Below are positions 19,464 through 20,296 of a DNA stretch of 64,000 bases, piece by piece. This DNA comes from Schmidtea polychroa. Its lineage: Eukaryota. Both the position numbers and the translations under genes were made by a program. The stretch lies in NCBI GenBank assembly GCA_044892525.1, contig CM097885.1, positions 1,302,001-1,366,000 of the forward strand, read 5' to 3'. Under the pieces are notes generated by a model. That model was given only the letters and a program-made list of their open reading frames with translations. It searched no databases and was not told the origin of the DNA. Numbering within the stretch: position 1 is the stretch's first letter; each line of letters starts with the position of its first letter.

Positions 19464-20296
19464 CAACATAAAATAATATTAAAAATTTGAAAATAATATT
19501 GAAAATAGTGTGGGTATCTTATATTTATAAAGTACTTGTATATTTTATTTTATTTATTTTATTTTATTTTATTTTTTTATTAATTAATTATTTTTTAAAC
19601 ATAAATATGAAAAAAAAAATATTGAAACGGGTGATGGTGGCGAACCGGTAATTATCGCCACCTGTCTTTCGAACACCCCCGGATCGATTCTTTAATGTGC
19701 ACATTTATTTCTCAGTTGTTTTCGGACCTCTTTCGAATTCGCTTTCGAATTCATTTGTACTTTCGAGCAGCACACTTAAAACGCCGATGAAATCGTATTC
19801 GAGCGAGAAGCGAATAATAAGGTGTGCTGCTATTATCGGATTGATTCTGATGTATGAGTCTGGCCAGCTTGTATATTGGAAGAGATTCGATAAACGAAAG
19901 AGGTTGATAAATAAAAAAAATGATCCGGATCAAAAAAAAACTGTTGAGACGACAGTGAAAAAAAAAAATACCACTGTCCCCTCAGAGCAGTTTTACTATT
20001 TTTCATTTATTTTTTAATTTATATAATTTAAAATCAATAATCTGATAAAGATCAAATAGCCCTCTAACTTTTTCATAATGCCATTTTCTTTTCTATTCTC
20101 TTTTTAGTTTGAAGCTTTTGAGTTTGAGGCTTTAAAGATTAAAACAGTTAGAGTCATTAAGGGTGGTTGTTTTCAAAATATAGGGTTAAAATACTATAAA
20201 AGTATAAGTTTTAGGTTGTTTTTCTAATAGCTTAAGTGATTTGGAGGCATGTTTTTGTTGGGGGGCTGTTTTGGTTGGGTATATAACCACACTACT
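19432..20296 (-). repeat. Right TIR of element A (~870 bp)
   Basis: Inverted copy of the left end, ends ACTACT; near-identical to 33048-33921. Confidence 0.95.

Follow-up and report, generated by a model that had tools for sequence, protein, structure and literature searches.

A candidate Pol III-read structured RNA gene in the terminal repeats of a planarian Maverick/Polinton element

Background

Mavericks are regarded as elements that encode only proteins, with terminal repeats whose roles are replication and integration. One such repeat, in a 64,000-nucleotide stretch of Schmidtea polychroa DNA (the window), holds a block of nested stems at 19628-19995 and so raises a question: what does a structure of this kind do at the end of a DNA element? 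The original prediction for the block offered two answers, a structured non-coding RNA of about 300 nt on the minus strand, or a single-stranded DNA (ssDNA) structure for replication or packaging. In the literature we searched, in which subscription journals and Repbase reports are mostly uncovered, we found no report of a Pol III structured RNA for Maverick/Polinton or adintovirus elements, and six short hairpin motifs of the block have no occurrence in the main text of that literature. The legend of one figure marks predicted tRNA genes in some MELD viruses with other replicases (PMC8502044).

Results

A Maverick/Polinton carries the block at its ends

The window is AT-rich and crowded with Maverick/Polinton fragments. 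The block belongs to a near-complete element (5669..20296) that begins with AGTAGT at 5669 and ends with ACTACT at 20296. It is a Maverick/Polinton: every hallmark tested was found, including long terminal inverted repeats, and the search for polymerase B, integrase, packaging ATPase and jelly-roll capsid gave Pfam matches to PF03175, PF00665, PF04665 and PF21738. Its genes and the three end copies found in the window are:

6247-8988 and 8998-10527: polymerase B, split over two open reading frames (ORFs), in the 5669..20296 element
5669..20296: other genes of the carrier, namely an A32-type packaging ATPase, an integrase with a PLA2-like domain and a double jelly-roll capsid
19360..20296: copy A, right terminal inverted repeat, about 940 bp, carries the block
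32975-33921: copy B, left end beside a polymerase fragment, carries a copy of the block
5669..6162, minus strand: copy C, left terminal repeat, without a 443-bp segment that includes the block; junction at the TTTTA repeat 5970-5974

The polymerase B gene (6247-10527) is in two ORFs here, against a single ORF of at least 1403 codons in a related Maverick, L002. At its AGTAGT and ACTACT ends the element shows no evident 6-bp direct target duplication. The flanks of the element (5051-5668 and 20297-21693) are arms of one repeat, as comparison with 36750-38129 shows, and are inverted for about 200 bp. A 98-aa ORF at 19134 has no homologue. Elsewhere in the window, a gene-free palindromic repeat (35817-37597) contains 29-30-bp tandem arrays and, near 36520-36680, a long hairpin at its centre, and a second Maverick family holds TBP-like ORFs (Pfam PF00352) at 48230-48598 on the minus strand and 56783-57220 on the plus strand.

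The block had been placed inside the terminal inverted repeat. Of the window's three end copies, two agree with this; in the third, at 5669-6162 on the left, the segment corresponding to 19548-19990 is missing, and TTTTA flanks the gap on both sides. The two left ends, copies B and C, are 98% identical across 2.36 kb. Because one left end and one right end both carry the block, a single microhomology deletion would be the simplest account of its absence from copy C; an insertion that duplicated 5 bp would be the alternative. Among the 15 of 54 contig joints listed, a set that leaves the repeat zone out, none matches the 443-bp gap. Since one end copy is without it, the unit is dispensable at least in single copies.

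The block folds far beyond shuffled sequence

We compared the folding energy of the block with shuffled controls, as the original prediction had proposed, and found it far more stable than shuffled sequence on both strands and in both copies. As RNA, the plus strand reaches -124.5 kcal/mol (z -7.68), the minus strand -107.5 kcal/mol (z -5.69) and the second copy -135.4 kcal/mol (z -9.10); in each case 0 of 100 shuffles reach the value. Among 346 strand-tiles of 368 nt, with 5 shuffles each, the two block copies rank 3rd and 5th in excess stability, and ranks 1, 2 and 4 go to a tandem array at 60.5-61.3 kb. An earlier tiling had left the block outside the top 15 of 213 tiles; its tiles cut the block in two and its shuffles covered one strand only. 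The block is also the GC-richer island it was said to be (0.405, against 0.17-0.30 in the flanking kilobases). The folding of the block is real.

Other strong folds occur in the window. The most stable, on both strands, are the tandem ATGACTCAT-rich palindromic arrays at 44427-44858 and 60643-61272, and a near-perfect AT-rich hairpin at 54686-54756 (tile ranks 7 and 8 of 346) lies just upstream of the polymerase-like ORF of the second family (54875).

In our model the block has three domains:

19629..19678, plus strand: 5' domain, closed by a GGGTG/CACCC stem (mean pair probability 0.86)
within 19629..19678, plus strand: 8-bp GGTGGCGA/TCGCCACC hairpin (mean pair probability 0.99)
19679..19928, plus strand: central domain with the CCGGATC/GATCCGG and 19716-19734/19896-19914 helices (main helices 0.88-1.00)
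19735-19752, 19766-19831 and 19833-19893, plus strand: three hairpins of the central junction
19833..19893, plus strand: longest hairpin, 25/27 pairs, with 8 G·U, 0 A·C and one GA/AG tandem
19937..19994, plus strand: 3' hairpin with an A11 loop run (A22 in copy B), z -6.72
33244..33620, plus strand: second copy of the predicted RNA unit, in the left end 32975-33921

The six stem pairs named beforehand are exact reverse complements at 19628-19995 and likewise at 33243-33620. As parts of the structure five of them stand. The sixth, TATTCG/CGAATA, has a pair probability of only 0.14-0.25 and is disrupted by a variant at 19797 that is common in two of four sequencing runs. The poly(A) hairpin had been called perfect in the second copy, and its 13-bp TGAGGGGACAGTG arm is indeed perfect only in the copy at 33559, while the copy at 19944 has two mismatches. 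The longest helix (19833-19893) and the hairpin 19735-19752 were absent from the original prediction. Aligned over 377 columns, copies A and B of the block show 2 substitutions and 12 gap columns, which bears out the expectation that two such copies are too alike to show covariation.

The fold favours the plus strand

The longest hairpin folds on the plus strand (z -5.67) and fails on the minus strand (z +1.06), and G·U pairs make up 13 of 111 predicted pairs on the plus strand against 4 of 107 on the minus strand. A neutrally decaying palindrome would give G·U and A·C equally often, and under such decay the 8 G·U against 0 A·C of 19833-19893 have a probability of 2^-8 = 0.004. Seven block variants are found among the 40 of 101 variant rows listed for four runs, with four at paired sites and three at unpaired ones. 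All four paired-site variants in these rows retain the plus-strand pair by an exchange of Watson-Crick and G·U; the result is weak (p about 0.09), as 92 of the 166 possible transitions at well-paired sites retain the pair anyway. The same rows hold no compensatory double change. The variant at 19950, unpaired in the model, agrees with the better-paired 3' hairpin of copy B.

The original prediction thus stands as to a structured RNA, and has to be changed in strand (plus, not minus) and in length (about 365 nt, not about 300). It had taken the minus strand to end in a T run; in fact runs of T11, T9 and T8 lie near the minus-strand start of the block. A minus-strand RNA would therefore misfit Pol III, which would meet these runs near the start of transcription. 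The minus strand could still be the functional one, as part of an inward Pol II leader or as a separate RNA, and the stability of its own fold (z -5.69) speaks for this. We consider it very improbable, because the longest hairpin fails there, the block has no A and B box pair on that strand, and the four paired variants become exchanges between Watson-Crick pairs and A·C mismatches.

Palindromes and inverted repeats abound in the window, as one would expect if the block were a functionless fold-back from template switching in a repeat-rich end. No tandem array scoring at least 80 covers the block, and its mismatch bias is one-sided, which argues against such an origin. Nor does the 106-codon ORF that overlaps the block (19697-20017) look like a small protein gene: it has no Pfam match, its frame is changed in copy B, and indels are frequent in its A runs. 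We give these two accounts together very little credence.

Pol III signals accompany the fold

On the same strand as the fold lie candidate signals of a type 2 Pol III gene:

19629..19994, plus strand: predicted Pol III RNA, about 365 nt, outward toward the terminus, with both ends predicted
19638..19648, plus strand: A-box-like motif TGGCGAACCGG at +10, one mismatch to consensus
19682..19690, plus strand: B box GATCGATTC at +54, exact to the consensus GWTCRANNC
19719..19722, plus strand: internal T4, a possible partial terminator that would yield a 94-nt product
19991..20015, plus strand: terminator-like runs T4 (19991), T5 (19999) and T6 (20010)

Both box consensuses are taken from general knowledge, and against them the A box at +10 (one mismatch) and the B box at +54 (exact) have tRNA-like spacing. 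We place the start at G19629 because the closing stem and the box spacing point there. What the box scan itself picked out was a different A candidate with one mismatch, at 19620; it gave no A and B pair on the minus strand of the block. An A box in the first 20 nt together with a B box arises in 19 of 5000 shuffles of the block, and any A and B pair on either strand in 289 of 5000. The window as a whole has 14 such pairs, against a mean of 4.2 and a maximum of 8 in 50 shuffles, and 6 of the 14 lie in the ends of this Maverick family. Box pairs on both strands are also found at 26944-27090, around a palindromic GGTTCGAACC near a GC-richer stretch that is possibly a SINE or tRNA remnant.

T5 runs are absent from the 362-nt body, with three in the preceding 269 nt and six in the following 307 nt; their absence alone is common (1215 of 3000 shuffles). 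The terminator of adenovirus VA RNA is four U's (PMC7589676). The internal T4 at 19719 may halt Pol III early and cut some transcripts at 94 nt.

Three shorter units of tRNA type precede the long one:

18663..18743, plus strand: degenerate unit with an A box, a B-box-like motif and T9, which aligns with the other two and was missed by the strict box scan
18892..18972, plus strand: tRNA-like unit with A box (18899), B box (18944) and T8; Rfam tRNA 32.4 bits (gathering 29)
19388..19463, plus strand: unit with A box, B box and T8, shared by all three end copies and sited at the repeat's inner edge

The right end therefore has four Pol III-type units on the same strand, of which the long unit is the last and by far the longest. 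ARAGORN calls no tRNA for 18892..18972. The units at 18663-18743 and 18892-18972 resemble diverged tandem copies.

These signals bear on the ssDNA structure for strand-displacement replication or packaging, which had been the second proposal for the block. It would suit a structure found in both ends that also folds with DNA parameters (z -7.3 on the plus strand, -4.9 on the minus strand, 40 shuffles each); as these parameters favour the plus strand too, strand bias alone cannot separate RNA from ssDNA. Protein priming occurs at the terminus, and the block lies 300-670 bp inward of it. The two complementary repeats would moreover panhandle together and hide the structure, one end is without the block, and the boxes and terminator would go unexplained, since a DNA hairpin needs no Pol III signals. 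Of this proposal the folding as DNA stands; its position and its Pol III signals leave it weak, and we rate it improbable.

The boxes could instead work as DNA only, with TFIIIC or Pol III shielding the ends or an inward promoter from silencing chromatin and the RNA as a by-product. The short units fit this account: all three keep boxes and T runs, and two of them fold like shuffles (z 0.05 and -0.26). A candidate for the inward promoter is a TATA-like motif on the minus strand at 19522-19529. What such shielding leaves unexplained is 365 nt of strand-specific, wobble-rich structure, and we regard it as unlikely.

A further account makes the block a passenger, a copy of a host non-coding RNA or a SINE-like retroposon that was inserted in one repeat and then copied to both ends. 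The presence or absence of 443 bp bounded by a TTTTA direct repeat is what such an insertion would leave, and the A-rich (TAAAA)n stretch at the end of the minus strand resembles a retroposon tail. SINEs, too, carry A and B boxes. Here the boxes and the tail-like stretch are on opposite strands, and we know of no SINE with that arrangement. A 5-bp repeat is present and no dispersed copy: the window holds no copy of the block outside the terminal repeats. Copies A and B carry the block and copy C, 98% identical to B, does not, a pattern for which one deletion is simpler, and no Rfam family matches the block above chance. We hold a passenger origin to be unlikely as well. The reading we prefer over all of these is a Pol III gene for a structured RNA, belonging to the Maverick itself.

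Distribution and homologues of the block

At least part of the block is present in 20 of the 24 sequencing runs listed; these 20 come from 9 studies, with organism labels A, B and C and from metagenomes. None of them is on record as RNA, which says nothing about expression. Contigs from four runs (organisms A, B, A and C) span all or part of the block; the organism C contig aligns from 19629 to 19837 with 7 differing letters. Rare contig joints in X1 and X6, two of the runs, leave out almost precisely the hairpin 19766-19831 (joints at 19764-19835) and are natural deletions or library artefacts.

Summed contig depth cannot rank parts of the block and is not used as evidence. Within that limit on ranking, run X1 has 0.4-2.6 million in 29 of 30 bins, the same in block and flanks. 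Run X8, which is RNA only at a guess, has 3,200-9,900 over 19688-19943, 360 and 712 in the end bins of the block and 0-400 outside, figures that cannot rank parts either. The same holds for run X6, with 0.9-2.3 million over 19432-19559 and 19624-19879, 0.1-6 thousand past 20008 and none over 18600-18983. Run X21, from the same study as X6, has almost none of the sequence words.

Searches of viral contigs through the capsid, a capsid alignment, the polymerase and one DNA pattern gave no homologue of the block. A second DNA pattern gave a single viral-contig match, which is a GC-rich unrelated hairpin, and a genome-contig pattern gave 70 matches in prokaryotic records, where 1 of 85 loci aligned over at least 35 nt (36 nt, E 0.004), which we take as chance. 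The block is also absent from the metagenome capsid loci (14 loci; nhmmer on 15), most of which are shorter than 2.5 kb and probably end short of the terminal repeat. In the Rfam scan the miRNA, 7SK, SRP, RNase P/MRP, Y, vault, ribozyme and snRNA families were not matched, the best scores of the block (10.9-23.8 bits) being far under gathering; we treat a mir-15 match (14 bits, E 1.9) as chance.

The related Maverick L002 (capsid 50%, polymerase 35-43%, with Pfam domains) carries a hairpin of its own at 5436-5515 on the minus strand, which is rich in G·U (z -7.9) and matches Rfam mir-754 on both arms at 48.6 bits (gathering 84, E 8e-9). In the literature sme-miR-754 is a planarian miRNA family (PMC3854530). 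The L002 hairpin has no sequence homology with the block and no A and B pair, and occupies another part of its element. All it demonstrates is that miRNA-like hairpins can be carried by this lineage. The match suggests that the planarian mir-754 family may be element-borne.

Discussion

On balance, and with moderate confidence, we model the block as a structured small-RNA gene of the Maverick, placed in both terminal repeats and read by Pol III. The fold and its strand, the boxes, the T runs and their position are directly established. From these signals, transcription of the unit by Pol III is likely. The A and B boxes inside the unit would bring in host RNA polymerase III, which would begin at about G19629, transcribe toward the terminus and terminate within the T runs of 19991-20015. 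It would thereby make an RNA some 365 nt long, in which a small 5' domain is followed by a long, branched central domain and then by a 3' hairpin. Transcription would run outward from both ends of the element, back to back with the inward TATA-like motif at 19522-19529.

What the RNA does can be approached by analogy. It may act as VA RNA does in adenovirus, or as Pol III hairpin RNAs do in foamy virus long terminal repeats (LTRs), a role that we regard as possible rather than probable: through its wobble-rich helices it would occupy Dicer, Exportin-5 or other dsRNA proteins or serve as their substrate, so that host silencing is blunted or small RNAs are made. A canonical Drosha substrate has a stem of about 35 bp with single-stranded flanks, and the longest stem of the block, 27 bp inside a junction, is below that, so we do not class it as a canonical pri-miRNA; it may still be processed by a non-canonical route. 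The Pol III precursors of foamy virus likewise have no canonical base (PMC3993851).

Wider and more tentative is the idea that Mavericks of this lineage make Pol III RNAs of their own, one of them a long RNA that works against host RNA silencing as a decoy or as a precursor of small RNAs. If this were true, a functional parallel to VA RNA would exist in a group held close to the ancestors of adenoviruses, and some annotated host miRNAs, for example the planarian mir-754 family, would be Maverick genes. A Pol III RNA gene in the repeats would equip Mavericks against silencing and help explain the very high copy number of one family, and would bear on the origin of viral Pol III RNAs such as VA RNA.

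Among known viral Pol III RNAs, VA RNA, which inhibits PKR or loads Dicer and Exportin-5, is the nearest comparison. It comes from a virus with a protein-primed polymerase B and shares with the block internal boxes, wobble-rich helices and, as predicted for the block, an oligo-U end (PMC7589676, PMC4378190). It has A and B boxes, is processed by Dicer and is about 160 nt long, with a terminal stem, a central domain and an apical stem (PMC7589676). The block, in contrast, is about 365 nt long, lies in a terminal repeat and has three separate domains, its 5' end not paired with its 3' end. Size, end pairing and Rfam (no VA match at E up to 10) all place it outside the VA RNA family. The VA tetranucleotide pair GGGU-ACCC has a counterpart in GGGT (19629) pairing with ACCC (19675), in the 5' domain and not the central one, and four bases can be chance.

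The Pol III miRNA genes of foamy virus LTRs resemble the block in being hairpin units clustered in the terminal repeats of an integrating element, and deletions of the LTR region, like the loss from copy C, are also cited for them (PMC3993851). The block differs in its DNA Maverick host and in being long and branched, with one hairpin near pre-miRNA size. Murine gammaherpesvirus 68 has tRNA-pre-miRNA chimeras, likewise several units of tRNA type, with hairpins behind a box-bearing head (PMC4378190). In the Maverick the tRNA-like units are separate and each ends in its own T run; we set a chimera aside, as the head of the long unit has no cloverleaf and neither Rfam nor ARAGORN finds a tRNA in the block. 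The EBERs of Epstein-Barr virus are, like the predicted RNA, branched viral Pol III RNAs that end in U (PMC4378190), whereas the block is longer, has no Rfam match and comes from an unrelated virus group. By these comparisons the predicted unit is probably a viral-type Pol III structured RNA, one that would work like VA RNA without being a member of its family.
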